A DNA stretch of 64,000 nt from Myxococcales bacterium. Lineage in GTDB: Bacteria; Myxococcota_A; Polyangia; Nannocystales; Nannocystaceae. Below the pieces are notes generated by a model. That model saw only the letters and a program-made list of their open reading frames with translations, made no database searches and was not told the DNA's origin. The stretch is taken from NCBI GenBank assembly GCA_020633335.1, contig JACKDU010000002.1:122730-186729 (forward strand), given 5' to 3'. Made by a program: the position numbers and the translations under genes. Positions 1 through 22,791 of this stretch are shown here, piece by piece (position 1 is the first letter of the stretch; each line of letters opens with the position of its first letter).

Positions 1-2112
1 GTCGCCCTTGAGGGTCGCCGTCGGCTTGAGGTCGCCGGGGGTGACGACGAAGGGCGCGGAGCTCAGCTCGTACTCGCTGGTCGCCGCGCCGTCGAAGGCC
101 CGCCCGCGGGCGACCAGGCGGTAGGTGCCGGCCGGGAAGTCGACCGGGATCTCCCAGGCGACCTCCCAGTGGTGCTTGCGGCTCGCCGCGATCTCCCCCT
201 TCGGCGTCGGGTCGCCGGTGTACCAGGTGATCATCGCGTCGCGGCGGTTGTCGAGGACCGCCGCCGGCCAGCCGCCCGGCGAGGGCGCGGGGACGAAGGC
301 GCCGCCCTCCTCGCGGAGCACCGTCACGTGCGGGGCGTCGACGCTCGGGTCGCCGCCGCCCCAGGCGAAGCGCGCCGAGTCCATCCGGCTGACCTCGGGG
401 ACAGGTTCCTTGAGGATCACGCCGGCGTCCTCGCTCGCCTCGAGCGCCCGCGCGTCGAAGGGCTCGCCGGTCGAGAGGTTGGGGCTCTCCTCGGAGAAGT
501 CAGGCCCCGGCACGCCGGCGACGAGGTCGTCGATCAGCTCGGCCTGGAGCTCGACGAAGGTGCGGGCGGCGAAGGGCCCCCACAGGCTCATCTCGGTCTC
601 GTAGCCCCCCTGGAACCAGTCGTCGGGGTGGGTGAGGTAGAGGAGGTGATCCTGGGAGTAGCCGAAGACGATCGGATCGAGCGCCCGATCGGCGATGAGC
701 TCGCGCGCGTACTTGACGACCGAGTGGGTCGGCTCGCCGGGCATCGTCACCAGCGCGAGCTCGTCGAGGAGGGCGGCGCTCATGTAGACCTGGTGGACCT
801 CGCCGTGGGGGATCGGCGCCCCGAGCGACTCGAGGAGCGCGCCGACCGACATGCACTCCTTGGGCTTGCCCTCGAGGCTGGTCGCCGGGTTGTTGTCGTC
901 GACCCCGTCGCCGGTGCACTGCCAGCCCCCCCAGGTGTAGGGGGTGCCGCCCTTGGAGACGAACTCGGGGATCTTGTCGTAGCCGAAGGTCTCGTAGCGG
1001 AGGTCGTGGCGGCGCGAGCGGACGCTGAGCGCGAGCTCGGGGCGCCACTCGATCGAGTTGTAGAGATCGATGATCTTCGGCGCCGCCGCCCCGCCGAGGA
1101 TCGCCGCCTTCTGCTCGGTGCGGTGGCCGAGGAAGCCGCCGGCCGGCGACGCGTCGCCGCCCCCCGACTGGATGAACATCCCGAGGATCGGCTGGCCGGT
1201 CGCCGCGTAGAAGGCCTCCTCGAAGCGGAGCTCGAGGCCCCCGGCCGCGTCCTCGGTGATGATCTCGTTGTCCGAGTCGAAGAGGGTGCCGTGCATCCCG
1301 AAGTTGATGATCGTCGCCATCGCCTCGCCGCCGGGGCGCCGGACCGCGACCAGGGTGAGGCGGGGATCCTTGCCGTAGGTCGGGTCGTTCTCGCCGCGGC
1401 GGTCGCGGTAGATCCGATCGTCGTCGTCCCAGCCATCGGCCCAGGCGTAGCCCCACTCGGCCGGCCCGAGGTCGTCGATCGCCGCCTTGATCGTGTCGGC
1501 GAAGGCGACGCTCATCCGCTCGATCACCTCCTCGTCCGGCGAGTCGGCGCCGATCAGCCCGAGCGCCGACGGCAGGCGCCAGTAGCGGGCCTGCGTGTGG
1601 TGGGAGTGGGTCGCGCCGGTGATGATCCGGCCGCGGAGATCGATCCCGTGGCGCTCGAGGAGCTTGGCGGCGGTCCCCTCGGTCAGCGACGCCTCCGAGC
1701 TCATCGTCGGGACCTTGAGGAGGACCAGGCGCTCGCCCTCGACCTCGAGGACCATCGCCTTGATCGACGGCGACTCCCGGAAGCCGCGCGAGCCGTTGAG
1801 CTGGTCGTTCCACGGGGTCCGGTTGACGACCGTGCGGCCGCCGTAGCCGGCCATCGACACCCCGACGGGGCCGTCGAGGAAGCCGAGGGCGACCCCGGCC
1901 CGCAGCGGCCCCGCCGTCGGCGGGACGTTGTCCTCGCCGGTCGTCGAGCCCTCGGTCTCCGCCCCTGACGTGGTGGTCACGGCCGTCGTCCCCGAGCTCG
2001 TCCCCTCGGTCGCCGACCCGCTCACCTCCCCCGGCGGCCCGCCGCAGGCGAGGCCGAGCGCGGCCCAGAGTGGCGTGGCGACGAGCGGGGGCGGGACGCG
2101 GAGTCGGAGCAT
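1..2112 (-). CDS. neutral/alkaline ceramidase-family lipoprotein; C-terminus runs off the window start
   Basis: Minus-strand codon periodicity (G/C at + triplet position 1) from ATG at 2112 to the window edge. N-terminal lipobox LGLAC plus a Ser/Thr/Gly linker. Segments GVSMAGYGGR and VVKYARELIADRALDPIVFGYSQDHLLYLTHPDDWFQGGYE resemble neutral ceramidase. Track ORFs 169..1968(+) and 500..1813(-) are wrong-frame. Confidence 0.6.
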   Translation of the reverse strand, partial: MLRLRVPPPLVATPLWAALGLACGGPPGEVSGSATEGTSSGTTAVTTTSGAETEGSTTGEDNVPPTAGPLRAGVALGFLDGPVGVSMAGYGGRTVVNRTPWNDQLNGSRGFRESPSIKAMVLEVEGERLVLLKVPTMSSEASLTEGTAAKLLERHGIDLRGRIITGATHSHHTQARYWRLPSALGLIGADSPDEEVIERMSVAFADTIKAAIDDLGPAEWGYAWADGWDDDDRIYRDRRGENDPTYGKDPRLTLVAVRRPGGEAMATIINFGMHGTLFDSDNEIITEDAAGGLELRFEEAFYAATGQPILGMFIQSGGGDASPAGGFLGHRTEQKAAILGGAAAPKIIDLYNSIEWRPELALSVRSRRHDLRYETFGYDKIPEFVSKGGTPYTWGGWQCTGDGVDDNNPATSLEGKPKECMSVGALLESLGAPIPHGEVHQVYMSAALLDELALVTMPGEPTHSVVKYARELIADRALDPIVFGYSQDHLLYLTHPDDWFQGGYETEMSLWGPFAARTFVELQAELIDDLVAGVPGPDFSEESPNLSTGEPFDARALEASEDAGVILKEPVPEVSRMDSARFAWGGGDPSVDAPHVTVLREEGGAFVPAPSPGGWPAAVLDNRRDAMITWYTGDPTPKGEIAASRKHHWEVAWEIPVDFPAGTYRLVARGRAFDGAATSEYELSSAPFVVTPGDLKPTATLKGD

Positions 2113-2246
2113 CGTCGCCAGGCTAGCAGCCCACGGGCGCCATCGCGCGAGGTCTCGAAGAGCCGAGGAATGGGGTCAAACACCCCCATATAGCGCGACG
2201 CTCGAATTCGGCAGTATGGTCGACGGGGCCAGGAGGCCCCCACACG

Positions 2247-4148
2247 ATGCCACGGATCTCGACGACAACCGCGACCCTCCTCTCCTCGCTCCTCACCGCC
2301 GCCTGCGCGGGCTCCGGCAGCGAGACCCAGACGACCCAGGGATCGAGCGACTCGGCGAGCGAGACCGGGACGAGCACCTCGGCCTCGACCTCGTCGTCGA
2401 CGACGTCGGTCTCCACGGTGACCAGCGCGAGCGCGGGGAGCAGCGGCGACTCGGACACCGAGGGCAGCACCGGCGGCCCCGACGAGCCGATCGTCCCCGG
2501 CCTCTCGTGCCCCGGCGATCCCAGGGGCGCCTGCGACGACTCCCCGGGCGCGCCCCTCGAGGCCGGCGCGGCGGTCGTGTCGATCCTCCCCCATTGCTGG
2601 GAGAGCTGGATCGACCAGAACGAGAACTCGGTCTTCGAGTCGACCAAGGACGTGCTCCTCGACTGCGGCTGCGACCGCCTCTGCCCCGGCGATCCCGGCT
2701 ACGTCGCCCCCGACGAGGGCGAGGGCGACGGCGAGCTCCAGCCGATCTGGCTCGCCGGCTTCGGCAACGGCCGCCCGGCCGCCGGGATCCGCGACGCCAA
2801 GACCGGCCTGGTCGGCGACGGCGACGGCTGGTGGGCGCGGGCGCTGGTCCTCCGCCAGGGGAACACGACGGCGGCGATCGTCAGCATCGACACGATCGGC
2901 CTCTTCAACGACGACGTCGTCCTGGTCCGCGAGGAGCTCGAGAAGCGCGGGGTCGAGATCGACCACCTGATCGTCCAGGCGATCCACAACCACGAGGGGC
3001 CCGACACGATGGGCCTCTGGGGCGCGCAGTTCCTCAAGGGCACCGGCTACATCGAGGCCTACGGCGAGCAGGTCCGGATGGCGATGGCCGACGCGATCGA
3101 GGGGGCGATGCTCAAGGACCTCCGGCCGGTCGCCCACATCACGGTCGGCGAGGTCGACATCTCGACCTACCACGAGAACGGCGTCGCCAACGTGATCAGC
3201 GATCACCGCGACCCCTGGGTGGTCGACGAGTTCCTCTCGGCGGCCCGCCTGGTCGACGGCGAGGGCGGGACGATCGCCAGCCTGATCTCCTACGGCTGCC
3301 ACCCCGAGACCCTGGCCGACGACAACCTCCTGATCACCGCCGACTTCGTCCACGCGCTCCGGCGGACGGTCGAGGAGGGCTCGATCTGGAACTCCGCGCC
3401 GACCAAGGAGGGCTTCGGCGGCCCGGCGATCTACCTCAACGCCGCGGTCGGCGGGATGATGACGACCCTCGGCGTCGAGGTCCACAACCCCGACGGCGAC
3501 TCCTACAAGAGCGCGACCTTCGAGAAGGCCGACTCGATCGGCCAGCTCCTCGGCGAGATGGCGATCGACGCGATCGAGAACGGCGAGGTGATCGACGACG
3601 CGCGCCTCTCCTTCGCCAACGTCGAGTTCTACCCCGAGGTCCTCAACACGACCTTCCAGCTCCTCTTCGACACCGGGGTGCTCAAGCGCACCACCTACCC
3701 GCCGAACGAGGGGAGCACGAAGATGCGGATCAAGACCGAGATGTCGGTGCTCAACCTCGGGCCGATCCAGATGCTGACGGTCCCCGGCGAGCTCCTCCCC
3801 GAGCTCGCGGTCGGCGGCTACGACGGCTCGCGGATCAACGCCCCCGGGGTCCCGCTCATCGACCCCAACAACACCAACCCGCCGAAGGTCGACCAGGCGC
3901 CGGCCGGCCCCTACATCAAGGACCGGATGGGCGGCACCTACCGCTGGATCATCGGCCTCGGCAACGACGAGCTCGGCTACATCATCCCCGACTACGACTA
4001 CGTCCTCGCCGACTCGATGCCCTACGTGAACGAGGCCGAGGGCGACCACTACGAGGAGACCAACTCGCTCGGGCCCCACATCGCCGGCCTCGTCGACGCC
4101 CACGCGGCCGCCCTCGCGGCCTGGTCGAAGGAGCACCTCGAGCGCTAG
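2247..4148 (+). CDS. neutral/alkaline ceramidase-family lipoprotein (paralog, divergent to previous gene)
   Basis: 633-aa ORF. Lipobox LLTAAC plus a Ser/Thr-rich linker. Motifs WARALVL, HNHEGPDTMG, SYGCHPETL and LGNDELGYIIPDYDY are consistent with the neutral ceramidase fold. Confidence 0.55.
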   Translation: MPRISTTTATLLSSLLTAACAGSGSETQTTQGSSDSASETGTSTSASTSSSTTSVSTVTSASAGSSGDSDTEGSTGGPDEPIVPGLSCPGDPRGACDDSPGAPLEAGAAVVSILPHCWESWIDQNENSVFESTKDVLLDCGCDRLCPGDPGYVAPDEGEGDGELQPIWLAGFGNGRPAAGIRDAKTGLVGDGDGWWARALVLRQGNTTAAIVSIDTIGLFNDDVVLVREELEKRGVEIDHLIVQAIHNHEGPDTMGLWGAQFLKGTGYIEAYGEQVRMAMADAIEGAMLKDLRPVAHITVGEVDISTYHENGVANVISDHRDPWVVDEFLSAARLVDGEGGTIASLISYGCHPETLADDNLLITADFVHALRRTVEEGSIWNSAPTKEGFGGPAIYLNAAVGGMMTTLGVEVHNPDGDSYKSATFEKADSIGQLLGEMAIDAIENGEVIDDARLSFANVEFYPEVLNTTFQLLFDTGVLKRTTYPPNEGSTKMRIKTEMSVLNLGPIQMLTVPGELLPELAVGGYDGSRINAPGVPLIDPNNTNPPKVDQAPAGPYIKDRMGGTYRWIIGLGNDELGYIIPDYDYVLADSMPYVNEAEGDHYEETNSLGPHIAGLVDAHAAALAAWSKEHLER

Positions 4149-4157
4149 CCCGAAGAG

Positions 4158-4173
4158 ATGTCCATATGGACAT
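4158..4173. repeat. perfect 16-bp palindrome ATGTCCATATGGACAT (member of the TGTCC..GGACA family), 18 bp upstream of the HupE-like gene start
   Basis: Read directly. The sequence equals its own reverse complement. GACATGTC and GTCGAC palindromes overlap and follow it. Confidence 0.8.
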
Positions 4174-4190
4174 GTCGACGAGGACATAGG

Positions 4191-5445
4191 GTGCGGGCGC
4201 CGGGATCGAGGCGGGCGCGCGGGCGGCGCAAGCGGCGCGGGCGCGCGAGGCGGGGCCTGGCCCTCGCCCTCGTCGGCGCGGCCCTCGGCCTCGCGCCCTC
4301 GGCCGCCGCCGCCCACAGCGTCGGCCTCTCGCAGGGGAGCTACCGGGTCCGCGGCGCCGAGGTCCAGGTCACCCTGACCTTCGCCCGCGGCGAGCTCCGC
4401 CGCCTGGTCCCCGGCAGCGACCGCGACCGAGATGGCGAGCTCTCCGAGGGCGAGGTGCTCGCCGGCGTCGCCGACCTCGAGGCGCGGGCGCTCGCCGGCG
4501 TAGAGCTCGCCCTCGACGGCCGCCCCTGCGTCGGCGCGCTCGAGCGGGCCGCCCTCACCGAGGAGGACGGCCTCGAGGTGACGATGACCTTCGCCTGCCC
4601 GGCGGCCGGCGAGGCGCTGACGATCACCCTGCCCCTCCTCGGCGAGCTCGGCCCCGGCCACCGCCACGTCGCTCGGGTGATCCCGCCGGGGAGCGACGAC
4701 GCCCGGATCGAGCGGGTGCTCGGGCGGATGCGGCCGCGGGTCGAGGTCGGGCTGGCGCCGCGACCCGCCCGCCCCGGGCCGCGGAGCCGCGCCCACCCGC
4801 GGCGGTCGCCGAGCCCGAGCCCGCGCCGACGCGCCCCGCCGAGGCGCCCGCCCCGCGTCCGAGCGCGGGCCCGAGCGCGAGCGCTGGCCCTACTTCGCCC
4901 TCGGCGTCGAGCACATCCTGATCGGCGCCGATCACCTGGTCTTCCTCCTCGGCCTGGTCCTGGTCCGCGACCGCCTCCGCGGGCGGATCGCCGTGATCAC
5001 GGCCTTCACCGCCGGCCACTCCCTGAGCCTCGCGCTCGCGGCCCTCGGCGCGCTCCTCCTCTCGCCGGCGATCGTCGAGCCGGCGATCGCCGCGTCGATC
5101 ATCTACGTCGGCGTTGAGAACGTGGTCCTTGGGACAGATCGCGAGCAGGGCCGCTGGCGCCTCACCCTCCCCTTCGGCTTCATCCACGGCCTCGGCTTCG
5201 CCGGCGCCCTCGCCGAGGTCGGCCTGCCGCCGGGCGAGGAGGCGCCCGCCCTCGCCCTCTTCAACCTCGGGGTCGAGGCCGGGCAGCTCCTCGCCCTCGC
5301 CCTCCTCCTGCCGCTCCTCGCCGCCCTGGACGCGCTCCCGGGGCTCCGGGCGCGCCCCTGGCGGCGCTGGCTGAGCCTGGCGATCGCCCTCGCCGGCGCG
5401 CTCTGGCTGGTCGAGCGGGTCGCCGGATCGGCGTCCGCCGCCTAG
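4191..5445 (+). CDS. HupE/UreJ-family metal (Ni/Co) transporter with an N-terminal periplasmic extension; reading frame broken twice (about 4760-4860)
   Basis: GTG start with an Arg-rich n-region and signal peptide, then AAAAHS. DRDRDGELSEGE is an EF-hand/dockerin-like acidic loop. The C-terminal part has HupE/UreJ signatures WPYFALGVEHILIGADHLVFLLGL and FNLGVEAGQ. Three frames must be joined to connect these parts (ORFs 4158..5117 and 4993..5445 plus a third frame). Confidence 0.55.
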
Positions 5446-5584
5446 TGCCGCGACCGCGACGTATCGACCCACCTCGCGTGGTCTCGCCGCCGCTGGCGTT
5501 GTTGCTCGTCGGTTGCAGAGGCCCGATCTGCGCCCTCCCGATCCCGGCGCGAGCTGGATCGATACGTCGCGGTCGGGGCACTAG
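5442..5584. repeat. 143-bp element bounded by 26-bp terminal inverted repeats (CTAGTGCCGCGACCGCGACGTATCGA / TCGATACGTCGCGGTCGGGGCACTAG, 25/26 match); MITE-like or long bidirectional terminator hairpin
   Basis: Inverted repeats read directly. The terminal CTAG of each arm contains the stop codon of HupE (5443-5445) and of the M24 peptidase (complement 5581-5583). Because of the mirror symmetry, both flanking ORF-track ORFs begin MPRPRRIDP. Confidence 0.6.
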
Positions 5585-6885
5585 CCGACGCCGAAGGGAT
5601 CCTCGATCGAGCGCGAGAGCGGCCCGAAGACCTCGACGCCCGATGGCGTGATCGCGACGATGTCCTCGATCCGGATCCCGAACTCGCCGGGGACGTAGAT
5701 CCCGGGCTCGTTCGACATCACCATCCCGGGCGCGAGGACGACCTCGGCGCCGCCGACGAGGTAGGGGTCCTCGTGGACCTGGAGGCCGATCCCGTGGCCG
5801 AGGCGGTGGGTGAAGCGGCGGTAGCCGGGGCCGTGGCCGGCGGCGTCGATCACCTGGCGGGCGATCTCGTCGATCGATCCGCCGCTCACCCCGGGGCGCA
5901 TCGCCGCCAGCGCGGCCGCCTGGGCGGCGTGGACGACCTCCCAGGCCGCCCGCAGCTCGGCCGAGGGCTTTCCCGTGAACCAGGTCCGGGTGACGTCGGA
6001 GCGGTAGCCGTGGAGCGAGCCGCCGGTGTCCACCAGGATCGCGTCGCCGGGGCTGAGCACCCGCTCGATGTTGGTCCCGTGGGGGAAGGCCGCGTTCGAG
6101 CCGACCAGGACCAGGGTCCAGACGTCGGTGAGGCCGGCGGCCTCCTGCGCCTCGCGGACCAGCTCGGCGATCGTCGCCTCGCTCATCCCCACCCGGATCT
6201 CGGCGGCCGCCCGCCGCAGCGCCTCCTTGGTCGCCTCCGAGGCCCGCCGCAGGAGCGCGAGCTCGGCCGGGCTCTTGATCATCCGGCAGCCGCTGAGGAT
6301 CCCGGCGTCGATCTCGAAGTGGGTCTGGCGGGCCGCCTGCCGGAGGGCGTCGACGACGAAGAGGCGCATCGCCGGATCGACCGCGACCCGGCCGAGGGCG
6401 GCGAGGCGCGCGGTGATCTGGGTGTAGGGCCCCTCGTGCTCCTCCCAGAGGTGGATCTCCCCCTCGTCGCCGACCCGCTCGCCGAGGGTCCCCGACTCGA
6501 AGGCGGGGCCGAGCCAGAGCGGCGCGCCCTCCACCGGCAGGACGTAGAGGAGCGGGCGCTCGCTCTGCCCCCAGCGGACGCCCGTGAGGTAGTAGAGGCT
6601 GACCCCGGCCTCGAGGACGATCGCGTCGACGCCGATCGCCCGCGCCAGCTCACGGGCGCGCTCACGGCGGGCCGCGTACTCGCTGGCCTGGATCGGCTCG
6701 GCGTCGACGCAGAAGGCGGCGAGGCCGGCGAAGGGGCCCCCACGCGGCGGCGTCTCCCGCGAGAGCTCCTCGTCGGCGGCGCTCCACGCTTGCCGACGGC
6801 CCGCGCAGCTCAGAGCGCCGAACCCGAGCCCGAGGCCGGCGGCGAAGCGGCGACGTGACCAGGGAGGCGCGATAGGATTCTCCAT
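5581..6885 (-). CDS. M24B Xaa-Pro aminopeptidase/creatinase-family peptidase with Tat signal
   Basis: Start MENPIAPPWSRRRFAAGLGLG carries a twin-arginine motif. HRLGHGIGLQVHEDP and SNEPGIY are metal-binding motifs of the M24 family. It is the real C-terminal part of the long track ORF 5581..8337. Confidence 0.8.
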   Translation of the reverse strand: MENPIAPPWSRRRFAAGLGLGFGALSCAGRRQAWSAADEELSRETPPRGGPFAGLAAFCVDAEPIQASEYAARRERARELARAIGVDAIVLEAGVSLYYLTGVRWGQSERPLLYVLPVEGAPLWLGPAFESGTLGERVGDEGEIHLWEEHEGPYTQITARLAALGRVAVDPAMRLFVVDALRQAARQTHFEIDAGILSGCRMIKSPAELALLRRASEATKEALRRAAAEIRVGMSEATIAELVREAQEAAGLTDVWTLVLVGSNAAFPHGTNIERVLSPGDAILVDTGGSLHGYRSDVTRTWFTGKPSAELRAAWEVVHAAQAAALAAMRPGVSGGSIDEIARQVIDAAGHGPGYRRFTHRLGHGIGLQVHEDPYLVGGAEVVLAPGMVMSNEPGIYVPGEFGIRIEDIVAITPSGVEVFGPLSRSIEDPFGVG

Positions 6886-6921
6886 ACCACACGCCGTCGA
6901 CCGGCGGCGCCGAACGAGCCG

Positions 6922-8391
6922 ATGAACGACCGATCCCCCGCCCCGCTCGAGGGCACGCCGCGCGAGCGCGAGGCCTGGCTCGCCGCCGCCGCGGCCTTCG
7001 TCCGCGAGCAGCTCGACAGCCTCGAGGACGCGCCCGCGCAGGGCCTCGTCGGCGCCGAGGCCAACCGCCGCGCCCGCGAGCTGAGCCCGCCGATCGCCGA
7101 GGCGCCGCTCGAGGGCGGGCTCGAGGGCGCGCTGGCGATCCTCCGCCAGGCGATCCCGCTCTCGCTCAACGCCGCCGGCCCCGGCTACCTCGCCTACATC
7201 CCCGGCGGCGGCCTCCCCCTCGCGGCGATCGCCGAGCTGATCGCCGGCGCGACCAACCGCTACACCGGCACCGCCGCGCCCGCGCCCGCGCTCTGCCGCC
7301 TCGAGGCCGACGTCCTCGCCTGGCTCGCCCGCGAGTTCGGCTACGGCCCCGACGCCCGCGGCCTCCTGACCTCGGGGGGCTCGATCGCCAACCTCACCGC
7401 GATCGTCACGGCCCGGGTCCACGCCTTCGGCGACGACGGCGACTACCGCCGGGCGATCGCCTACACCTCGAGCCAGGCCCACCACAGCGTCGCCAAGGCG
7501 CTCCGCCTCGCCGGGATCCCGGCGGCCAACCTCCGCCTGGTCGAGGTCGACGAGGCGCTCGAGCTCCGGCCCGCGGCCCTGCGGGCGGCGATCGCCGCCG
7601 ATCGTCAGGCCGGCGCGCGCCCCTTCCTGGTGATCGCGGCCGCCGGCACCACCAACACCGGCGCCGTCGATCCGCTGCCGGAGCTCGCCGCGATCTGCCG
7701 CGCCGAGGGCCTCTGGCTCCACGTCGACGGGGCCTACGGCGGCGCCTTCGCCCTCAGCCCCCGCGCCCGCGCCCGCCTCGCCGGGATCGACCGCGCCGAC
7801 TCGATCACCTTCGACCCCCACAAGGGGATGTTCCTGCCCTATGGGACAGGTTGTCTCCTGGTCGCCGACGGCCAGCGCCTCGCCCGGGCCCACGCCGGCG
7901 GCGGCGACTACCTCCAGGACCTCGCGTCGCTCGAGGACGAGGGCGAGGCGCCGAGCCCCAGCGCCTACGGCCCCGAGCTCAGCCGCTCCTTCCGCGGCCT
8001 CCGCCTCTGGCTGCCGCTCATCGTCCACGGCGCGGCCGCCTTCCGCGACGCCCTCGACGAGAAGATCGAGCTCGCGGCCGCGATCGAGGCCGGCCTGCGG
8101 GCGCGGATCGCCGCCGGCGCGCCCCTCGAGATCCCGACCCCGACCCGCCTCAGCGTCGTCGCCTTCCGCCTCCGGCGGCGCCCTGGCGAGGCCGCCGACG
8201 CCTGGGATCGCCGCAACCTCGCGCTCCTCGCCGGGATCAACCGCCGCCAGAGCGTGCACCTCTCGAGCACCCGCCTGCCGATCCCCGGGGGCTCGATCAC
8301 CACCCTCCGGGCCTGCGTCCTCTCCTTCCGGACCCACCGCCCGCGGATCGATCGCCTCCTCGCCGACCTCGACGCCGCCCTCGCCGACTAG
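6922..8391 (+). CDS. PLP-dependent group II decarboxylase (aromatic-L-amino-acid/glutamate decarboxylase family)
   Basis: SGGSIANLTAI, and DPHKGMFLPYGTGCLLV with the PLP-lysine in the D-x-HK context. Length is 489 aa. Confidence 0.75.
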   Translation: MNDRSPAPLEGTPREREAWLAAAAAFVREQLDSLEDAPAQGLVGAEANRRARELSPPIAEAPLEGGLEGALAILRQAIPLSLNAAGPGYLAYIPGGGLPLAAIAELIAGATNRYTGTAAPAPALCRLEADVLAWLAREFGYGPDARGLLTSGGSIANLTAIVTARVHAFGDDGDYRRAIAYTSSQAHHSVAKALRLAGIPAANLRLVEVDEALELRPAALRAAIAADRQAGARPFLVIAAAGTTNTGAVDPLPELAAICRAEGLWLHVDGAYGGAFALSPRARARLAGIDRADSITFDPHKGMFLPYGTGCLLVADGQRLARAHAGGGDYLQDLASLEDEGEAPSPSAYGPELSRSFRGLRLWLPLIVHGAAAFRDALDEKIELAAAIEAGLRARIAAGAPLEIPTPTRLSVVAFRLRRRPGEAADAWDRRNLALLAGINRRQSVHLSSTRLPIPGGSITTLRACVLSFRTHRPRIDRLLADLDAALAD

Positions 8392-8403
8392 CGCGCCGGA
8401 GCC

Positions 8404-10695
8404 TCATCCGGGCGGCGGTCGATCGAGCGCGCGCCGGACCGCGCTGGCGAGCGCGTCGAAGGTGAAGGGCTTGTCGAGGACCTCGTCGCCCGGGCCCTCC
8501 AGGTCGACCCCGTCGACGTCGCCGCTGATCAGGAGCACGCGGAGCTCCGGCAAGCGCTCGCGGATCGCCGCCGCCAGGGCCGGCCCCCGGAGCTCCGGCA
8601 TGATCACGTCCGAGACCAGGAGGGCGATCGACGGCCCGATCTCGTCGACGATCTCGAGCGCCTCGGCGGCCCCGCGGGCGGCGACGACCTCGTAGCCGAG
8701 CTTGAGGAGGGCGTCGCGCTCGCTCGCCAGGACCTCGGGATCGTCCTCGACGACGAGCACGCGCTCGCCCGCGCGGGCCCGGGGCGGCGCGGCGACGACC
8801 TCCTCGCCCGCGCCCGCGCCCGCGCCGCGCTCCTCGCCGACGTGGCGCGGGAGGTCGACCCGGAAGGTCGTGCCCGACCCGAGCGAGCTCTCGACCGTGA
8901 TCACCCCGCGGCACTGCTGGACGATCCCGTAGACCGTGGCGAGGCCGAGCCCGACCCCCTTCTTCGCCGACTTGGTCGTGAAGAAGGGCTCGAAGATCCG
9001 CCGGAGGTCGGCCGGCGCGATCCCGGGCCCGTCGTCGTGGACGCTGAGCCGGACGTAGTCCGCGAGCGCGCCGGAGGCCCGCGGATCCGGTCGCCGCACG
9101 CTCTCGACCCGCACGTCGATCCGCCCGCGGCCGGCCATCGCGTCGCGGGCGTTGACGCAGAGGTTCACCAGGATCTGGTCGAGCTGGCCTGGATCGGCGA
9201 GGACCCGCCAAGGCTCCCCCCGACGGGCGAAGCTCAGCCCGATCTCCTCGCCGAGGAGCTGGCGGAGCATCTCGAGCATCCCCTCGACCGCGCCGCCGAG
9301 CTCGATGATCTTGGGGGTCACCTCCTCGCGGCGGGCGAAGCTGAGGAGGCGCCGGACGAGGTCGCTCGAGTGGCGGGCGCGCTCGATGATCCCGCGGACA
9401 TGACGGCTCGCGGGATCGTTCGGCCGCAGCGCGTCGAGCGCGAGCTCCGCCCGCATCGAGATCACCGCGAGGATGTTGTTGAAGTCGTGGACCACCCCGC
9501 CCGCGAGGCGGCCGATCGCCTCCATCTTGTGGCTCTGATCGAGCTCGGCCTGGAGGCGGGCGGCCGCGCGCTCGGCCTCCCGCTGATCGGTGACGTCGAG
9601 CTTCTGGACCAGGATGTCGCCGCCCACGAGCGGCGTGATCACGAGGACGACGTCGGCCTTGCCCCGCCGAGTCGACGCGATGCCGCCGGCCCGTAGCTCG
9701 TCGAAGTCGATCGTCGACTCGAGATAGACCCCCTCACCCGCGGCGATCCGGGCGCGCTGCTCCGCCCGGAGGGCCACCCGTTCGAAGAGGTTGATCCCCC
9801 GCAGCCCGTCGATCCCGTCGACCCCGAAGAGCTTGAGCGCCGCCGGATTCGCCTGGAGCACCCGCCCCTCGCTCGAATAGAGGGTGATCGAGATCGGCGA
9901 CGCTTCGAAGATCTGGCGGAGCGCCTCCTCGCTCCGACGCAGCCGCTCCTCGGCGGCCTTGCGATCGCTGATGTCCTGGACCGCGGCGATCCGGTGGAGG
10001 ACCACCCCGCTCGCGTCCTTGAGCGTGGTGACGTCGACGATCACCGGGAAGCGCGTGCCGTCCTTGCGGACGTGGACCGACTCGAAGGAGTAGTGCCCGC
10101 GGCGGTGGGCCTCGGTGATCTCCGCCGGCAGCGCGGCCCGGACCTCGGGGGCGAAGAGCTCGCGCGGCGGCAGGGCGAGGAGCTCGTCGATCGTGTAGCC
10201 GTGGCTCTCGGCGAAGGCGCCGTTGACCATCTCGACCCGCTGGAAGTCGGCGTTGCCGACGATCAGGGGGAGGCGCGCGCAGAAGAAGGCGTGATCCCAG
10301 GGCCTGGGCGCCGCCTCCTGGTCGCCGATGATCTCGATCGTCCCGCGCACGTCGAGGAGCTCGCCGTCGCCGCTCCAGCGACCGCGCCCGCGGATCCGGA
10401 GGACGCGGCGCCGCCCGCCGATCAGCGCGCCCACCTCGCTCGAGAAGGTGGCGCGATCGCGCTCAAGGCCGACCATCCGGAGGCGATGGGCGAGGCGCTC
10501 GTCGTCGCCCAGGAGCGCCTCGAAGGGAAGATCACCCGGCTGGCCGAAGGCCTGCCCGCGCGCGAGGATCGGAGCGAGGTCTGAGAGCCCCGTCGTCCTC
10601 CCGCTCTGTCGATCCCAGGACCAGGCGCCGACGTCTCCTCCCCCGAGCGCGAGGAGGAGGGCCTCGACGTCACTATCGTCGCCGCTCGCGTGCAT
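8404..10695 (-). CDS. hybrid sensor histidine kinase with PAS domains and C-terminal receiver
   Basis: H-box AGGVVHDFNNIL. The HATPase region carries DDGPGI, GVGLGLATVYGIV and FEPFFTTK. The receiver is VLVVEDDPEV...VSDVIMPEL. Confidence 0.85.
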   Translation of the reverse strand: MHASGDDSDVEALLLALGGGDVGAWSWDRQSGRTTGLSDLAPILARGQAFGQPGDLPFEALLGDDERLAHRLRMVGLERDRATFSSEVGALIGGRRRVLRIRGRGRWSGDGELLDVRGTIEIIGDQEAAPRPWDHAFFCARLPLIVGNADFQRVEMVNGAFAESHGYTIDELLALPPRELFAPEVRAALPAEITEAHRRGHYSFESVHVRKDGTRFPVIVDVTTLKDASGVVLHRIAAVQDISDRKAAEERLRRSEEALRQIFEASPISITLYSSEGRVLQANPAALKLFGVDGIDGLRGINLFERVALRAEQRARIAAGEGVYLESTIDFDELRAGGIASTRRGKADVVLVITPLVGGDILVQKLDVTDQREAERAAARLQAELDQSHKMEAIGRLAGGVVHDFNNILAVISMRAELALDALRPNDPASRHVRGIIERARHSSDLVRRLLSFARREEVTPKIIELGGAVEGMLEMLRQLLGEEIGLSFARRGEPWRVLADPGQLDQILVNLCVNARDAMAGRGRIDVRVESVRRPDPRASGALADYVRLSVHDDGPGIAPADLRRIFEPFFTTKSAKKGVGLGLATVYGIVQQCRGVITVESSLGSGTTFRVDLPRHVGEERGAGAGAGEEVVAAPPRARAGERVLVVEDDPEVLASERDALLKLGYEVVAARGAAEALEIVDEIGPSIALLVSDVIMPELRGPALAAAIRERLPELRVLLISGDVDGVDLEGPGDEVLDKPFTFDALASAVRRALDRPPPG

Positions 10696-10887
10696 CAGCG
10701 CCGCCGCCCTCGAAGCTACCCCGGGCCGCGGCGGGGCTCAACCTCGGACATCCACGCGTTTCTGTGGGCCGACGACCCCGATCGCCCCCGCGCCTCCGCG
10801 CGGCCCTGGGCGGTGACGCCTGTCGGACGCCGCCGACCACGCGATACCCTGCCGCGACTCGAGGCGACCCTCGAAGGAGCGACGACG

Positions 10888-11793
10888 ATGAGCAATGGCA
10901 AGGTAGTTCTGATCACTGGCGCCGGCACCGGCTTCGGCCGCCTCAGCGCCGAGACCCTGGCGAACCACGGCTACACGGTCTTCGCCGGGATCCGCGAGGT
11001 CGACGGCCGCAACGCGGCGACCGCCGCCGAGCTCAAGGCGCACGCGAGCGGCCGGATCCACCCGGTCGAGTTCGACGTCACCAGCGACGCGTCGGTCTCG
11101 GCCGCGATCGCGGAGATCCTCAGCGAGGGCGGCGGCCGCCTCGACGTCGTCGTCAACAACGCGGGCGTCGCCACCTTCGGCCTCGCCGAGGCCTTCACGC
11201 CGGCGCAGCTCCAGGCCCTCTTCGAGGTCAACGTGATCGGCCCGCAGCGGGTGAACCGGGCGGCCCTGCCGACGATGCGCGCCCAGGGCTCGGGCCTCCT
11301 GATCCAGATCACCAGCGGCCTCGGTCGGATCATCTTCCCGGTGATGGGGATCTACTCGGCGAGCAAGTTCGCGGTCGAGGCGCTCGCCGAGGCCTACCGC
11401 TACGAGCTCGCGCCGATCGGCGTCGACTCGGTGATCATCCAGCCGGGCGCCTTCCCGACCGGGATCCTCACGCGGACGATGTACGGGGTCGAGGGCGAGC
11501 GCGCCCAGGGCTACGGCGACAACGCCGCGCTCCCCGAGATCATCGGCCAAGCGATGGGCGGGATGCTCAACGGCCCCAACCCACCGGACCCCCAGGACGT
11601 CGCCGACGCGGTCCTGCGGCTCTGCGAGACCCCGACCGGCGAGCGGCCGCTGCGGACCGTCGTCGACAACCTCTCGGGCGACGGCCCGCGGGCGATCAAC
11701 AACCTCACCGATCAGATCCAGGCCGGGATGTTCACCGGCATGGGGATGGGCGGCCTCCTCCAGCCCCGCGGCGGCGACAAGCCGGCGAGCTGA
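10888..11793 (+). CDS. short-chain dehydrogenase/reductase (SDR)
   Basis: AAGGAG RBS 7 nt upstream of ATG. KVVLITGAGTGFG Rossmann motif, NNAG, and the YSASK catalytic motif. Confidence 0.85.
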   Translation: MSNGKVVLITGAGTGFGRLSAETLANHGYTVFAGIREVDGRNAATAAELKAHASGRIHPVEFDVTSDASVSAAIAEILSEGGGRLDVVVNNAGVATFGLAEAFTPAQLQALFEVNVIGPQRVNRAALPTMRAQGSGLLIQITSGLGRIIFPVMGIYSASKFAVEALAEAYRYELAPIGVDSVIIQPGAFPTGILTRTMYGVEGERAQGYGDNAALPEIIGQAMGGMLNGPNPPDPQDVADAVLRLCETPTGERPLRTVVDNLSGDGPRAINNLTDQIQAGMFTGMGMGGLLQPRGGDKPAS

Positions 11794-11816
11794 GGCCGGC
11801 CTCCGCCGCCGGACAG

Positions 11817-11836
11817 ACCTGTCTCTTTCGACAGGT
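11817..11836. repeat. palindrome ACCTGTC-TCTTTC-GACAGGT (same arms as the copy at 59504)
   Basis: Read directly; perfect 7-bp arms. Confidence 0.7.
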
Positions 11837-11841
11837 TCAAG

Positions 11842-11885
11842 GAGACCCCGCCGGGCGCCCGACCGACGCGCCCCGGCGGGGTCTC
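11842..11885. terminator. GC-rich hairpin (14-bp stem GAGACCCCGCCGGG / CCCGGCGGGGTCTC, 16-nt loop) between convergent genes
   Basis: Perfect inverted repeat between the SDR stop (11793) and the pectin-acetylesterase gene end (11891). No U-tract, as is common in high-GC genomes. Confidence 0.55.
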
Positions 11886-11890
11886 ACACC

Positions 11891-12952
11891 TCAGGGGCAG
11901 TTGACGTCCGGCACCTCGACCGCGTGCGTGGTCCCGGAGCCGCTCAGCCAGCTCGAGAGGAGCGTCCGCTGCGAGTGCTCATCGACCTTGACGCTGTTGA
12001 AGAACGCCAGCGTGAGGAGCCCGTGGAGCCAGGTCACCGGGCTGAAGGTCGCGTCGAGATCGGCGATCGAGTCGCGGACCGCCGGGCCGAAGGTGCAATT
12101 GACGTATTGCGCGCGGTCGCCGAGGTAGGGGTAGTCGACCCCGAGGTAGCCGAGGAGGACGATGTCCTGCTGGGCGACGTGGATGAAGATCGGCGCGCTC
12201 AGGGCCGCCACCGCGATCTCGCCGAGGTAGCAGAGGCCGAGGTCGCCCGGGTGCTCGCTGGCGCAGGACTCGTCGACCCGCGCCCCCCAGAAGGCGACCC
12301 CGGCGGTCGCCCGCTCGTAGTAGGAGCCGAGCGCCGGATCAAAGGGCGGGATGTCGACCAGCCAGCCCGCGTCGTCGAGGCCGCGGACCTTGGCGGGAGA
12401 GAGGCGCGCCTTCACCCGGTCGAGGTTGATCAGGACCCCGACGCCGCCGGCGGAGGTCCCCGCGAAGAGGACGTCGAGCCCCGCGGAGGGCTCGAGGTAG
12501 CCCTGGTCGATCAGATCGTCGAGCGCCGCCTCGAGGATCCGCGAGCCCCGGAAGTGACGATCGCCGGTCTCCGGCGCCGCCGCCCGATCCCCCGACCAGA
12601 GGTCCGACGAGCAGTACTTGAGGAAGACGTGGTGGGCGTCGTGGAAGTCGGGGTTGGTGCCCTCGTCGGTCGCGAAGATCCCGCCGGGGTTGAGCTCCTC
12701 CGGCCAGCCCGACGACGACTGGAGGTCCATCGTCCGCGCGTCGCACTCCTCGACGCTGTCGCAGAAGCCGCCGCCCTCGAGGTAGATCAGCCAGCGCGAC
12801 GACTTCCCGGGGCGGTAGTAGTAGCCCGCCGGGGTCCCGTCGTTGCAGATCGCCTGCGGGTCGTCGAGCTCGTGGAGCTCGAGGTGACGCTGGCAGCCCC
12901 CGAGGAGACCGGTGCTGAGGGTGAGCCCGAGGGCGAGGCGGCGCGCATCCAT
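11891..12952 (-). CDS. pectin acetylesterase / Notum-like family lipoprotein
   Basis: Lipobox LLGGC. WLIYLEGGGFCDSVEEC and LFAGTSAGGVG match PAE-family (PF03283-like) motifs. Confidence 0.65.
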   Translation of the reverse strand: MDARRLALGLTLSTGLLGGCQRHLELHELDDPQAICNDGTPAGYYYRPGKSSRWLIYLEGGGFCDSVEECDARTMDLQSSSGWPEELNPGGIFATDEGTNPDFHDAHHVFLKYCSSDLWSGDRAAAPETGDRHFRGSRILEAALDDLIDQGYLEPSAGLDVLFAGTSAGGVGVLINLDRVKARLSPAKVRGLDDAGWLVDIPPFDPALGSYYERATAGVAFWGARVDESCASEHPGDLGLCYLGEIAVAALSAPIFIHVAQQDIVLLGYLGVDYPYLGDRAQYVNCTFGPAVRDSIADLDATFSPVTWLHGLLTLAFFNSVKVDEHSQRTLLSSWLSGSGTTHAVEVPDVNCP

Positions 12953-13046
12953 TCACGCCTTGATGCCCCCGGGGCGCGGGGACGACCAGCGCAAGGAGGG
13001 CGAGCGGCGGGGCGCGGAGGCGCGAACTTTACGGGCCCTCACCCCG

Positions 13047-14114
13047 CTAGAAGTGATAGCTGAGCTGGTACTCGACGCACTCGAGCGCGTTCTGGTTCTC
13101 GACCTTGATCCAGATCGTCGCGCTGTCGTCGAGGCCGTCGCAGTTGATCGTCGGCGTCACCGTCCCGAAGGAGCAGCACCCCTTCTGCCCCTGGGGCGCG
13201 GTGTCGGGGGTCTCGCCGGCGCAGAGCACCGAGGTCCCGCTCGACGCGCAGCGGGCGTAGACGCAGAGGCGCGCCTGGGCGTTGGCGGAGAGCTGGCGGG
13301 TCGGGTTGACGACGTTGAAGGGCTTGTCCTCGCCGTTGTAGACGAACCAGTCGACGTCGTCCGGGCCGTCGAGGGTCGCGCAGACGTAGCTCCCGTCGGC
13401 GTCGTCGTCGGAGATCGTCCCCAGCGAGTAGGCCGAGGCCTGGCTGTCGTTGGGCTCGCCCGGCTCGTTGGTGCACTCGGCGAAGGTCGGACAGGGGCGA
13501 CAGACGCCGTCGGGGTGGCAGTAGCCGCCAGCGCAGGGGGTGTTGACCGCGACCGGCGTCGCCACCGGGGTCATCCCGTCGCAGGAGTCGACCGTGCACT
13601 CGTTGCCGTCGTTGGGGGTGTCGGACTCGTCGACCTCGAAGATCGCCTCGCCGTCGGGGCCGCAGCTCGCGGTCTGACAGTCGCCGTGGATCGGCAGCGG
13701 CGGGTCGGTCTGATCGAGCACCAGGATGATCCCGCCGGACTCGTCGCAGACCGGCAAGTGACAGTCGCCGCGATCGTCGAAGGGCGGATCGTTGGTGATC
13801 ACCGTCTGCCACGAGCCCATGCCGTCGCAGATCAGCCCCCGGCAGTCGCCGTGGATGTCGTCGTCCATCGCCCCCGCCGGCAGGTACTCGGCCTTGCACA
13901 CGTTGTCCTCGTCGCAGGTCAGATCCTCGCAGACGCCGGCCTCGCACTCGGTCGTGCACTCCGGGGTGGTGGTCGCCGTCGCGGTCCCGTGATCGTCGTC
14001 GTCGTCGATGAACCAGCAGCCGGCGGCGACGAGCAAGAGGGGCGCCAGCGCCAAGCCACGCCCGATCCTCAGGAGCACACCGCGACCACCACGTACCCAA
14101 GCCATGGCCCTCAT
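13047..14114 (-). CDS. Cys-rich secreted lipoprotein (myxobacterial)
   Basis: Lipobox LLVAAGC, an Asp-rich linker, and many CxxC / C-x-D-G motifs. Confidence 0.6.
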   Translation of the reverse strand: MRAMAWVRGGRGVLLRIGRGLALAPLLLVAAGCWFIDDDDDHGTATATTTPECTTECEAGVCEDLTCDEDNVCKAEYLPAGAMDDDIHGDCRGLICDGMGSWQTVITNDPPFDDRGDCHLPVCDESGGIILVLDQTDPPLPIHGDCQTASCGPDGEAIFEVDESDTPNDGNECTVDSCDGMTPVATPVAVNTPCAGGYCHPDGVCRPCPTFAECTNEPGEPNDSQASAYSLGTISDDDADGSYVCATLDGPDDVDWFVYNGEDKPFNVVNPTRQLSANAQARLCVYARCASSGTSVLCAGETPDTAPQGQKGCCSFGTVTPTINCDGLDDSATIWIKVENQNALECVEYQLSYHF

Positions 14115-14166
14115 TGTTGCACTCCGCCGCGGCGGGCGCTCGCCCTCCCGCGAGAACGCCGCTCAT

Positions 14167-14196
14167 CCCGAGGGGCGCGCCGCCCGAGGGGCGCGC
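14167..14196. repeat. tandem direct repeat CCCGAGGGGCGCGC x2 (2-bp gap) upstream of the Cys-rich lipoprotein gene
   Basis: Read directly; possible regulator site. Confidence 0.5.
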
Positions 14197-14241
14197 TCGC
14201 GCCGAAGACGTCCGCGACGCGGGCTCGCGCCCGCCCCCGCC

Positions 14242-14787
14242 CTACCAGGTGATGCCGGCGCCGATCGCCGCGCCGTAGGAGGCGGCGAAGAAGCCGTACC
14301 AGCGCATGTCGATGTTCACCGGCCGCGCCCAGAAGCACCAGAAGTCGTTGACGATGAGCTTCACGGTCGGCCCCGCCATCGCGAAGAACGAGTGGTAGGG
14401 CGTCTTGTTCCACTTGTAGAAGCCGTAGCCCGCGGCGACGTGGGGCCCCAGGTAGAGGCCGAGCGGCTTCGACGGGATCAGCTTGAAGTCCCACTCGAAC
14501 ATCGGCCCGACGGCGAAGCCGAAGTAGCGGGCCCAGCCGCCGACGTGGGTCACGACGCCGAGCGCCGGCCCCTCGGCGTTGCCCTTGAAGTGGTAGAGGT
14601 AGTCGAGCCAGGCCGCGCCCGCCGGGCCCGGACCCCGGCCGAAGCCGTAGCCGACGTGCGGTCCGAACTCAAAGCGGTTGGCCTTGGTCCCGTCGCGGAG
14701 CGAGCTCGGGACCGCCTGGGCCTCCGGCGCGGCCAGGGCGAGGGACGCGAAGGTGGTGACGCTGAGCGCGAGGTGGGCGAGGCGCAT
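14242..14787 (-). CDS. small outer-membrane beta-barrel-like protein
   Basis: Signal peptide MRLAHLALSVTTFASLALAAPEAQA. Gly/aromatic-rich alternating pattern with a C-terminal ...GAGITW aromatic terminus. Confidence 0.5.
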   Translation of the reverse strand: MRLAHLALSVTTFASLALAAPEAQAVPSSLRDGTKANRFEFGPHVGYGFGRGPGPAGAAWLDYLYHFKGNAEGPALGVVTHVGGWARYFGFAVGPMFEWDFKLIPSKPLGLYLGPHVAAGYGFYKWNKTPYHSFFAMAGPTVKLIVNDFWCFWARPVNIDMRWYGFFAASYGAAIGAGITW

Positions 14788-14990
14788 GAGGACATGATGC
14801 CCGGAGGAGCAGGCCCTGACTATGGTCCGGCGCACGACGCGCGCCGACGCGCCAGGCGCCCTCTCCAGGCCCGCCGACCGGCCTCTGGCCCCTCGAGCCC
14901 GGGCAGCGCGGAGCCCCGAAGACTACGCCAGCGATCGACGAGCGCGACGCACGAGCGACGACGCAGACCTTTCGGTGTCGCCCGCCGAGA

Positions 14991-15815
14991 TCAGCCGCGG
15001 GCCTCGTCCTCGTCGGGGAGGACGAAGCCGTAGAAGCCCGCGAGGAGGTTGGCGCGGTGCTCCTCGCAGCAGCGGACCGATCGGGTCTCGAGGTTGCGGC
15101 CGTCGGCGACCGGCGGATCGCGCTTGGCCACCAGGAGGTAGGTGCGGACGCCCTTGATCACGTGGCGACCGACCTCGCAGTAGTCGGGGCGCGCGGAGAT
15201 CCGCTGGCGCTCGGCCTCGGTGCCGACCCGCACCCAGGCGACCTCTCCGCAGGCCCCACAGGGCGCGCCCCCTCGCGTCCGCGGGACCTCGACGACATGT
15301 CCGTAGGGCAAGCTCTCGACGTTCGCGCAGCGCATGCAGCGGTACTCGCTGCGGGCGCCCTCGGTGTCCGGGAGCGGCACGCCCCCGAGCGCGTGGGGGT
15401 ACGAGACGTGGACCGAGCCGCGCCCCGCATGCACCCAGCCCCAGGGGAAGGCGTAGAGGACACCGCCGCGGTTGCCGTAGCTCGGCGCGCCCAGGCCGTT
15501 GGCCAGCCAGGTCCAGTGGCGGAGGTCGCGGATCATCACCCGCTCCGCCTCCGGCGGCCGGCCGTCGCCGCAGAGGAGGCGGATCCGGAGCTCCTGGAGG
15601 TGGCCGCGGAAGCAGAGCCAGAGCTCAGCGGCGCGGCCGTCGAGGAGCTGCGGACGCGGCCGAAACCAGTCGGCCTGGCGGGTCGCCCCGGCGGCCAGGC
15701 GGGAGCGGGCGAAGCGGCCGTGGTCCCACGAGGGATCGAGGGTGAGGCCCGCCTCGAGGTTGACCCCGCCGCTCCCCGGATCGATCCACCGCCCCACGCT
15801 CACCCGCCTCGACAA
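14991..15815 (-). CDS. hypothetical protein with two CxxC pairs (Zn-ribbon-like)
   Basis: Strong minus-strand codon bias; CMRCANV and CGACGEV motifs; no recognisable family. Confidence 0.45.
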   Translation of the reverse strand: MSRRVSVGRWIDPGSGGVNLEAGLTLDPSWDHGRFARSRLAAGATRQADWFRPRPQLLDGRAAELWLCFRGHLQELRIRLLCGDGRPPEAERVMIRDLRHWTWLANGLGAPSYGNRGGVLYAFPWGWVHAGRGSVHVSYPHALGGVPLPDTEGARSEYRCMRCANVESLPYGHVVEVPRTRGGAPCGACGEVAWVRVGTEAERQRISARPDYCEVGRHVIKGVRTYLLVAKRDPPVADGRNLETRSVRCCEEHRANLLAGFYGFVLPDEDEARG

Positions 15816-16423: not shown

Positions 16424-16427
16424 GCCG

Positions 16428-22648: not shown

Positions 22649-22791
22649 ATGCGAACGCTAGCGACTCCGCCGCTGCACCGCCAAATTTCGGATCATTCGC
22701 CGGCCACCGTCGCCGAGGCGATGTGGCCTACGTACTTTTCACACATATCGGCGCATTGCCGGCGCAGGCCGCCTTTGGTAGCGATCGAGCG

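Follow-up and report, generated by a model that had tools for sequence, protein, structure and literature searches.

Introduction

Bacterial MITEs are elements of less than 200 bp with terminal inverted repeats, TA termini and target duplications, and their transcripts form long stem-loops (PMC2229807). The Correia/NEMIS elements are often co-transcribed with their neighbors, yielding long stem-loop transcripts, and Correia RNA is a substrate of RNase III; RUP is thought to have been mobilized by IS630-Spn1 (PMC2229807). IS630 itself generates a 2-bp duplication at its target CTAG (PMC2577343, Table 1, citing Tenzen and Ohtsubo, 1991).

Here, we describe an element of this kind in a 64-kb stretch of a contig from an uncultured Myxococcales bacterium (hereafter, the window, i.e., the whole stretch that was analyzed), situated between a HupE/UreJ-like gene and a convergent gene encoding an M24 Xaa-Pro peptidase. 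Three general traits of bacterial MITEs are seen: the element, at 143 bp, is within the generic size limit of about 300 bp and is non-coding, it has terminal inverted repeats, and related copies occur in unrelated contexts (three elements in three organisms). We consider it likely that this is a MITE, i.e., a non-coding derivative of a cut-and-paste DNA transposon, that landed in the CTAG of two convergent stop codons, and that any effect of its hairpin is incidental. The MITE family is probably new and of the IS630/Tc1 type, the link to IS630 being the target motif.

Results

Structure of the element

The features of the element and of the two adjacent genes are listed below; L124 is a metagenome contig that carries a related element.

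5442..5584, no strand: whole element bounded by CTAG...CTAG, 143 bp, from the sequence and the family alignment
5445–5581: element, should the TA on either side be a target-site duplication, 137 bp
5442..5467, plus strand: left terminal inverted repeat, with the outer 15 nt CTAGTGCCGCGACCG conserved in the family and weaker repeat similarity up to 5478
5559..5584, minus strand: right terminal inverted repeat, matching the left arm at 25/26 positions, with the mismatch at 5576
5468..5558, plus strand: non-palindromic oriented core, homologous to the L124 core in the same orientation
5501–5517: best-conserved core block GTTGCTCGTCGGTTGCA, window versus L124
5443..5444, no strand: left TA, candidate 2-bp target-site duplication, which together with G5445 makes up the TAG stop codon of the HupE-like gene
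5582..5583, no strand: right TA, candidate target-site duplication, which with C5581 reads CTA, the minus-strand TAG stop of the peptidase gene
5485..5498, plus strand: small internal hairpin with a T-rich run after it (CGCCGCCGCTGGCG TTGTTGCT), from the scan for terminator-like sites
4993..5445, plus strand: 3′ part of the HupE/UreJ-like gene, with the HupE_UreJ_2 domain; the full gene starts near 4191
5581..6885, minus strand: M24 Xaa-Pro peptidase gene, 434 aa, with the Creatinase_N domain and the C-terminus at the position typical of the family

The 26-nt arm CTAGTGCCGCGACCGCGACGTATCGA is found at 5442–5467 on the plus strand with 0 mismatches and at 5559–5584 on the minus strand with 1 mismatch, and it was matched in 0 of 100 dinucleotide-shuffled versions of the window; the arm match and the shuffles confirm the preliminary description of a 143-bp element with 26-bp terminal inverted repeats agreeing at 25 of 26 positions. 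When extended, the inverted repeat reaches 43 nt at 88% identity (5436–5478/5548–5590), and it is the best in the 64-kb window, with no other equaling it in both length and match. Outside CTAG, the match between the arms drops to 4/6 positions, about the chance level in GC-rich DNA, hence, the repeat boundary is sharp at CTAG. The layout of the element is C-TA-[GTGCC...GGCAC]-TA-G, and its ends, together with the flanking TA, read TA-GTGCCNCGACCG. TA (or CTAG) flanks both ends of all three elements, CTAG being palindromic and part of the search pattern; due to the palindromic nature of CTAG, the flanking TA may belong to the inverted repeat rather than to a duplication.

The GC content of the element is 69.9%, compared with 73.3% in the 64-kb window. 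The 91-bp core, at about 71%, had been described as lower in GC than the local average, which is true relative to the HupE side (78–84%) and fails relative to the peptidase side (66–69%), the effect being marginal. The element is small and non-coding, with a stop codon in three of the six reading frames of its 143 bp, and a protein database search with its concatenated six-frame translation, aimed at spurious ORFs over other copies, gave no match.

RNA folding, suggested earlier as a check, produces a long stable hairpin on both strands: each strand forms one long hairpin, at −104.1 and −108.2 kcal/mol, with stability z-scores of −7.2 and −7.9 for the two strands, and 0 of 200 shuffles fold as well. 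Very stable folding on both strands and the location of the element exactly between convergent genes would both suit a native, locus-specific bidirectional terminator or 3′-UTR hairpin that arose in place, is kept by selection, is not mobile, and stops convergent transcription of the HupE-like and peptidase genes. The internal plus-strand hairpin with a T-rich tail at 5485..5498 is consistent with this too; its stem is 5 bp, and it is the only consensus terminator-like site found in the interval 5000–6000. The main hairpin, however, is followed by no T-run or U-tract on either strand; its stem, at more than 40 bp, is far beyond what termination needs; and the repeat stops sharply at CTAG. As an account of how the element originated, a terminator that evolved at this locus is quite improbable, and the further evidence on it is given below with the other junctions, the relatives, and the same-species contigs.

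Other identities of the element were tried and rejected. The integron attC test gave the ends CTAGTGCC/GGCACTAG, which are not RYYYAAC...GTTRRRY, and there is no array or repeated copy in the window. Reasoning from the sequence, we dismissed a retron msr/msd (no reverse transcriptase gene and too short a spacer), an invertible segment (the contig ends are not at 5468, where the orientations would diverge), and a sigma-54 promoter in the core (GG–GC spacing of 9, not 12).

Flanking genes and stop codons

The terminal CTAGs do hold both neighboring stop codons, as was noted in the preliminary description: the HupE-like ORF stops with TAG at 5443–5445, and the minus-strand peptidase ORF, 6885..5581, has its TAG at 5581–5583, where the plus strand shows CTA. 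The C-termini of both the HupE-like protein and the peptidase coincide with the C-terminal positions of their homologues; as the two proteins end where their homologues do, the element neither truncates nor extends either of them. Upstream of its stop, the HupE-like gene of the window has an indel frameshift relative to an intact 418-aa version in L123, a short-read contig of the same species.

If the element and one TA are removed in silico, the junction reads ...GCC GCC TAG CCG ACG..., with the HupE and peptidase TAGs overlapping in one CTAG; the predicted empty-site sequence is ...GCCGCCTAGCCGACGCC... Since TAG stops are common in this genome, two of them at one junction are unremarkable by themselves, and an argument from the improbability of such a pair was dropped for this reason.

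A palindrome could also have been made in place, by a replication template switch (duplication–inversion) copying the 3′ flank of one gene without any transposase. The 25/26 match of the arms, which include the reverse complement of a stop codon, and the single copy in the window agree with such an event. The copy junction, however, would have to fall at precisely the point where the peptidase gene naturally ends, and the same 15-nt ends and homologous core in other organisms would be left unexplained; we find this origin hardly credible and retain insertion of a MITE as the preferred reading.

Other convergent junctions in the window

Convergent junctions (n = 13) were taken from a GC3-based gene sketch of the 64-kb window. 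The HupE–peptidase spacer, at 135 nt, is the longest of the 13, the others ranging from −4 to 97 nt. An apparent overlap in a single CTAG, with TAG on both strands, is seen at 24456–24459, between the ORFs 22723–24459 (plus) and 24456–24926 (minus); the latter is a Fur-family gene, while support for the former consists of GC3 bias only, with no Pfam match.

Short hairpins of another type recur in the window. CATGTC-N6-GACATG occurs four times (0.02 expected) and CCTGTC-N6-GACAGG three times (0.08 expected); hairpins of this CATGTC/CCTGTC type are present in several intergenic spacers, some of them convergent, and absent from the HupE–peptidase spacer. This appears to be the ordinary intergenic hairpin of the genome, and the use of a different short hairpin, CATGTC-N6-GACATG, in other convergent spacers is a further argument against the element having arisen as a local terminator.

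Related elements in metagenomes

The JGI metagenomes were scanned with the outer 14 nt of both arms only (CTAGTGCCNCGACC...GGTCGNGGCACTAG) at a spacing of 100–130 nt, i.e., with 26 specified bases; the chance expectation of this two-arm scan, allowing for GC bias and pre-existing hairpins, is roughly estimated at 0.01–0.15. Two elements were found, at positions 359–514 of L124 (156 bp) and 112–255 of L125 (144 bp), in contigs with GC contents of 66.6 and 57.6%, respectively. The family comprises three known elements, each from a different organism, with sizes of 143–156 bp, terminal inverted repeats of roughly 26 nt, and GC contents of 61–70%.

All six arms of the three elements share CTAGTGCCNCGACCG as their outer 15 nt, and the consensus of the arm profile over the three elements is CTAGTGCCNCGACCGNNNCGTAWTGA. 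As CTAG was written into the search pattern, finding it in L124 and L125 adds no independent evidence. Features that the pattern did not impose are G at arm position 15, seen in 6/6 arms, and (T/C)GA at arm positions 24–26, seen in 5/6 arms. Of the outer 15 nt, only arm position 9 varies in the family (G, C, or T), and the sole SNP by which the element of the window differs from that of L111, a second contig of the species, falls at this position.

The interiors of the window and L124 elements align over about 90 nt with a score of 35, compared with a shuffle mean of 17.1 (z = 6.8, 0/500 shuffles), whereas z is 1.0 in the reverse orientation; GTTGCTCGTCGGTT(G/A)CA is part of the aligned stretch. 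L125 has only its ends in common with the family, and its interior is unrelated and almost perfectly palindromic. All three elements fold into a long hairpin, and within each of them the arms co-vary, pairing being kept.

L124 has all its genes on the minus strand, the order being transaldolase, SIS-domain protein (stop codon at 579), element, and NAD-dependent epimerase; the element is 64 nt downstream of the SIS-domain gene and 18 nt upstream of the epimerase ATG. In L125, the element is between a CAAX-protease-like gene, which has its own terminator hairpin, and the start of a same-strand ORF, which, judged by inspection of the sequence, resembles the N-terminus of a response regulator. Thus, both metagenomic elements are between co-directional genes, neither of them at a convergent junction. 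The flanks of the three elements have nothing in common beyond CTAG, and the neighboring genes are unrelated. The core is in the same direction as the HupE gene in the window and opposite to all genes in L124.

These contexts bear on each of the origins proposed in the preliminary description. The MITE-like option is favored by the presence of homologous elements with the same termini in two unrelated contigs and by the sharp CTAG/TA boundaries. A long shared terminator as the origin is contradicted by the co-directional relatives, one of them 18 nt before a start codon, as well as by the missing U-tract and the different hairpin in other convergent spacers; in particular, the contexts of L124 and L125 largely refute a terminator evolved at the HupE–peptidase locus, although a terminator-like or RNA-barrier effect as a by-product is plausible. 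As for the structured small RNA, nothing was found in its support, and Rfam shows no match overlapping the window element at E up to 10.

A broader version of the RNA idea is a conserved structured non-coding RNA, or a protein-bound DNA palindrome, in which the oriented core is functional, the conserved ends are the closing stem or a binding site, and spread is by descent or horizontal transfer and not by transposition. Conservation of the core between hosts of 73% and 67% GC is indeed limited to one orientation, the arms co-vary with pairing kept within each element, and no genome has so far yielded more than one copy, all of which would suit such a molecule. Covariation of the arms is, however, also expected of ends bound by a transposase; L125 retains the ends with an unrelated interior; the orientation relative to the neighbors differs between the window and L124; the neighboring genes are unrelated; the scan of the window element showed no promoter-like site; and Rfam returns only generic hairpin noise, the matches to L125 being miRNA-precursor hairpins far below the gathering score. 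We regard this explanation as unlikely; a vertically inherited regulatory RNA is likewise unlikely given the contexts of the relatives.

It is also conceivable, if improbable, that the family is a horizontally spreading structured module whose oriented core (GTTGCTCGTCGGTTRCA and the flanking blocks) is functional, e.g., as a portable device for RNA stability or termination, or as a small RNA. If so, CTAG-specific insertion would let the module slot between overlapping stop codons, damaging neither gene.

Same-species contigs and assembly breaks

The peptidase is identical in four short contigs, from three Logan assemblies and from NCBI GCA_020431225.1, and about 100% identical in L111, a 143.9-kb contig of the Myxococcales MAG GCA_020633385.1. 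L111 is 99.26% identical to positions 1–16916 of the window and has an element of the same length, with a single SNP at 5576, the position of the arm mismatch, where the window has G and L111 has A; the L111 allele is also present in the short-read contigs L002 and L004. The same length and one-base difference between the window and L111 would be expected of a native terminator as well.

Counting the window and six fetched contigs, the element is present in 7/7 sequences of the species. A single copy and an absence of indel polymorphism had been named in the preliminary description as signs of a non-mobile element, and these are seen in part: there is one copy in the 64-kb window, and the seven sequences show no insertion or deletion polymorphism. 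Mobility in this particular genome is, therefore, what we infer rather than observe.

Short-read contigs independently confirm the left arm up to 5470 and the right arm with the adjoining core down to 5536–5540; the interval 5471–5535 is given by the window and L111 only, which are identical to each other there. The window and L111 are probably long-read assemblies, as there are 21 gap openings in 16.9 kb between them and both are frameshifted in the HupE-like gene, a frameshift missing from the short-read L123.

The window and L111 cross the whole element, whereas all five short-read contigs, from four assemblies of the species, end inside it: L123 at 5470, entering from the left, and, from the right, L002 at 5555, L001 at 5546, L003 at 5540, and L004 at about 5524–5536. 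Logan contigs are built with k = 31 (PMC12424806). The two arms have no k-mer of 18 nt or longer in common and, therefore, cannot on their own entangle the assembly graph. When a contig runs from unique sequence into a repeat, it should stop 30 nt past the last unique base, and two of the ends, those of L123 and L002, are exactly k − 1 = 30 nt inside the CTAG boundaries. The last unique base so implied is 5440 for L123 and 5585 for L002, giving a repeated unit of 5441/5442–5584, i.e., the CTAG-bounded element. The L001 end implies 5576, the SNP position, and a mixture of strains explains it equally well; the L003 and L004 ends do not fit the 30-nt rule. Overall, the pattern is suggestive of the terminal 31-mers occurring elsewhere in those samples with other flanks; alternatively, the breaks could reflect poor short-read coverage over a strong hairpin.

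Searches for further copies, empty sites, and a parent IS

The 64-kb window and 4.4 kb of L111 contain no second copy, which would also be expected of a native terminator; diverged copies were not detected in the window and all fetched loci by sensitive blastn and nhmmer with the whole element or by nhmmer with an HMM of the arms. In the GTDB genomes, the 17-mer CGACCGCGACGTATCGA gave more than 105 single chance matches across all phyla, and among those listed none extended into the arm or had both arms; the best of the listed matches, in L066, is 23 nt exact and is inside a coding ORF, with no partner arm. The 22-nt arm pattern had 0 matches in the JGI metagenomes, and the source species appears to be absent from this collection of metagenome contigs. 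Six patterns run against viral contigs yielded chance 17-mer matches or nothing, a plasmid blastn search with all three elements gave nothing meaningful, and the terminal sequence strings had no match in the literature.

A long-range pair of terminal inverted repeats with the element ends was not found in the 64-kb window, and the window, plasmid, and viral-contig searches revealed no autonomous IS with matching ends. Empty sites were not seen either, the window and the six species contigs all being filled. The next peptidase homologues are 59–64% identical and retain the divergent decarboxylase–peptidase pair with other genes downstream, hence, there is no orthologous empty site to examine; the HupE homologues are likewise distant.

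Discussion

Proposed origin of the element

Assuming the MITE reading, the element would be moved by a transposase supplied in trans. The ancestral HupE-like and peptidase genes would have ended in a single CTAG, their TAGs overlapping by 4 nt, and the element would have inserted at the central TA of this CTAG with duplication of TA. As the first base of the element is G and the last is C, the insertion would have rebuilt CTAG at each end, so that each gene retained a TAG stop and its original C-terminus. Targeting of CTAG with duplication of TA is characteristic of IS630/Tc1-mariner transposases, and an IS5/IS427-type transposase with CTAG duplication is equally compatible. IS5/IS427-type elements make a 4-bp CTAG target duplication and would leave the same footprint.

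Once in place, the element would be included in the 3′ end of both convergent transcripts, and RNA from either strand could form a hairpin of 50 or more base pairs. Such a hairpin might block read-through and 3′ exonucleases, or RNase III might cut there, cf. the Correia elements of Neisseria; by this analogy, it probably acts, incidentally, as a two-way barrier at the 3′ ends of RNA.

Significance

The element adds a G+C-rich MITE family, from an uncultured Myxococcales bacterium and two other bacteria, to a class whose known members are mostly A+T-rich elements of pathogens. It is also a clean illustration of the way in which a CTAG-targeting transposon can slip into a 4-bp convergent stop overlap with both genes left intact, and a caution to annotators that such spacers should not be read as evolved terminators or small-RNA genes. 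Insertion into overlapping stops is neat and would not surprise a specialist, the element being of a well-known kind with no new mechanism, and the current understanding of transposition and termination is unchanged. A practical consequence concerns assembly: all of the short-read contigs studied at this locus (five contigs, four assemblies) are broken within the 143-bp element, hence, unrecognized MITEs or hairpins of such sort fragment metagenome-assembled genomes.

Comparison with known systems

Bidirectional intrinsic terminators resemble the element in being located between convergent genes, with a hairpin possible on both transcripts; however, they have short G+C-rich stems with flanking A- and U-tracts and are locus-specific, whereas the element is 143 bp long, without U-tracts, and its relatives are at non-convergent positions. 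ERIC/IRU of enterobacteria are imperfect palindromes of about 127 bp that are intergenic and transcribed, with a long stem-loop (PMC2229807); in ERIC, however, the contiguous terminal pairing spans only about 7 bp, and its sequence shows no similarity to that of the family described here.

The Correia/NEMIS elements, MITEs of Neisseria, are alike in size (about 105–155 bp), in terminal inverted repeats of about 24–26 nt, in TA termini, and in intergenic location. They differ in that no sequence relationship exists, and that Correia elements are A+T-rich, with hundreds of copies per genome, whereas the family here has 61–70% GC; moreover, neither an IHF site nor an outward promoter was identified in the element.

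RUP of Streptococcus pneumoniae and other IS630-derived MITEs are likewise small elements with terminal inverted repeats, located at TA, with presumed mobilization in trans by an IS630-family transposase (PMC2229807), and the IS630 preference for CTAG with TA duplication (PMC2577343, Table 1) matches C-TA-[G...C]-TA-G at all three elements. Unlike the present family, whose link to IS630 is the target motif alone, RUP has a known parent IS (IS630-Spn1) and 108 copies. IS870, another member of the IS630 family, reportedly creates a TAG stop codon at the element–target junction upon insertion into CTAG; that stop serves the transposase ORF of IS870 itself, whereas here the rebuilt CTAGs serve two host genes.

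Reading frame of the HupE/UreJ-like gene and strain variation

The HupE/UreJ-like gene, which converges with the M24 peptidase gene across the 143-bp terminal inverted repeat (TIR) element, is placed in the assemblies as follows.

Window 4158–5445: HupE/UreJ-like gene
L111 (143.9-kb contig of the same species, probably long-read, as is the window) 11441–12697: HupE/UreJ-like gene
L123 (short-read contig of the same species) 154–1410: HupE/UreJ-like gene

The window copy of the gene is broken across two reading frames. L111 has a 418-aa gene call, yet its middle is out-of-frame junk with two compensating shifts. An intact 418-aa protein, including the HupE motif region (HILIGADHLVFLL), is seen in the short-read contig L123. 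Between the window and L111, 21 gap openings are found in 16.9 kb. The frame breaks are probably indel errors of the long assemblies, not a true pseudogene.

The short-read contig L004 (GCA_020431225.1, JAGQIR010001363.1) ends inside the element, its last 12–16 nt corresponding to window positions about 5524–5536. It reads GGGAAAACACAAATCA here, as opposed to GGGAGGGCGCAGATCG in the other assemblies, with an A in place of each G. The difference seems to be an artefact of sequencing or assembly at the hairpin, not genuine variation. Window position 9000 is where two other short-read contigs, L001 and L002, begin. Adjoining these starts, 17 differences that separate the window from L111 cluster at positions 8501–9000, within a PAS/histidine-kinase gene; this segment is a hotspot of variation among strains, and it breaks short-read contigs as well.

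Apparent overlap of stops, and repeats

One CTAG at window positions 24456–24459 is apparently common to two convergent ORFs, a 578-aa ORF (strong GC3 bias, no Pfam match) and a Fur-family regulator, giving their TAG stops a 4-nt overlap. The layout is the same as that inferred for the HupE/UreJ-peptidase junction before the proposed insertion.

Seven short hairpins in the window have a common stem sequence, in two variants: CATGTC-N6-GACATG (four observed, 0.02 expected) and CCTGTC-N6-GACAGG (three observed, 0.08 expected).

CATGTC-N6-GACATG: window 26058–26075, 45343–45360, 50371–50388, 59532–59549
CCTGTC-N6-GACAGG: window 11818–11835, 59505–59522, 63953–63970

Convergent spacers hold five of the seven, these five being the ones whose surroundings were considered; here, the hairpins are often nested in longer stems, and local GC is lower. 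They have the look of either the usual terminator of this genome or a small palindromic repeat of REP type.

The window also carries three sets of tandem repeats, apparently within putative coding sequence, none of them related to the 143-bp element.

Window 35697–36575: six units of about 157 nt each
Window 58480–59235: 126-nt units
Window 39081–40188: short repeats in a row, with a sequence suggestive of Asp-rich motifs of calcium-binding type

In the related 144-bp TIR element of L125, an unrelated metagenome contig, the interior (142–218) is a nearly perfect hairpin with a stem of about 28 bp, formed by CCATGCCCACGCTTGTCGTGGGCATG and its complement. This hairpin might be a small palindromic element in its own right, nested within the TIR element. 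Its stem motif, CATGCCCACG, loosely resembles the CATGTC hairpins of the window.
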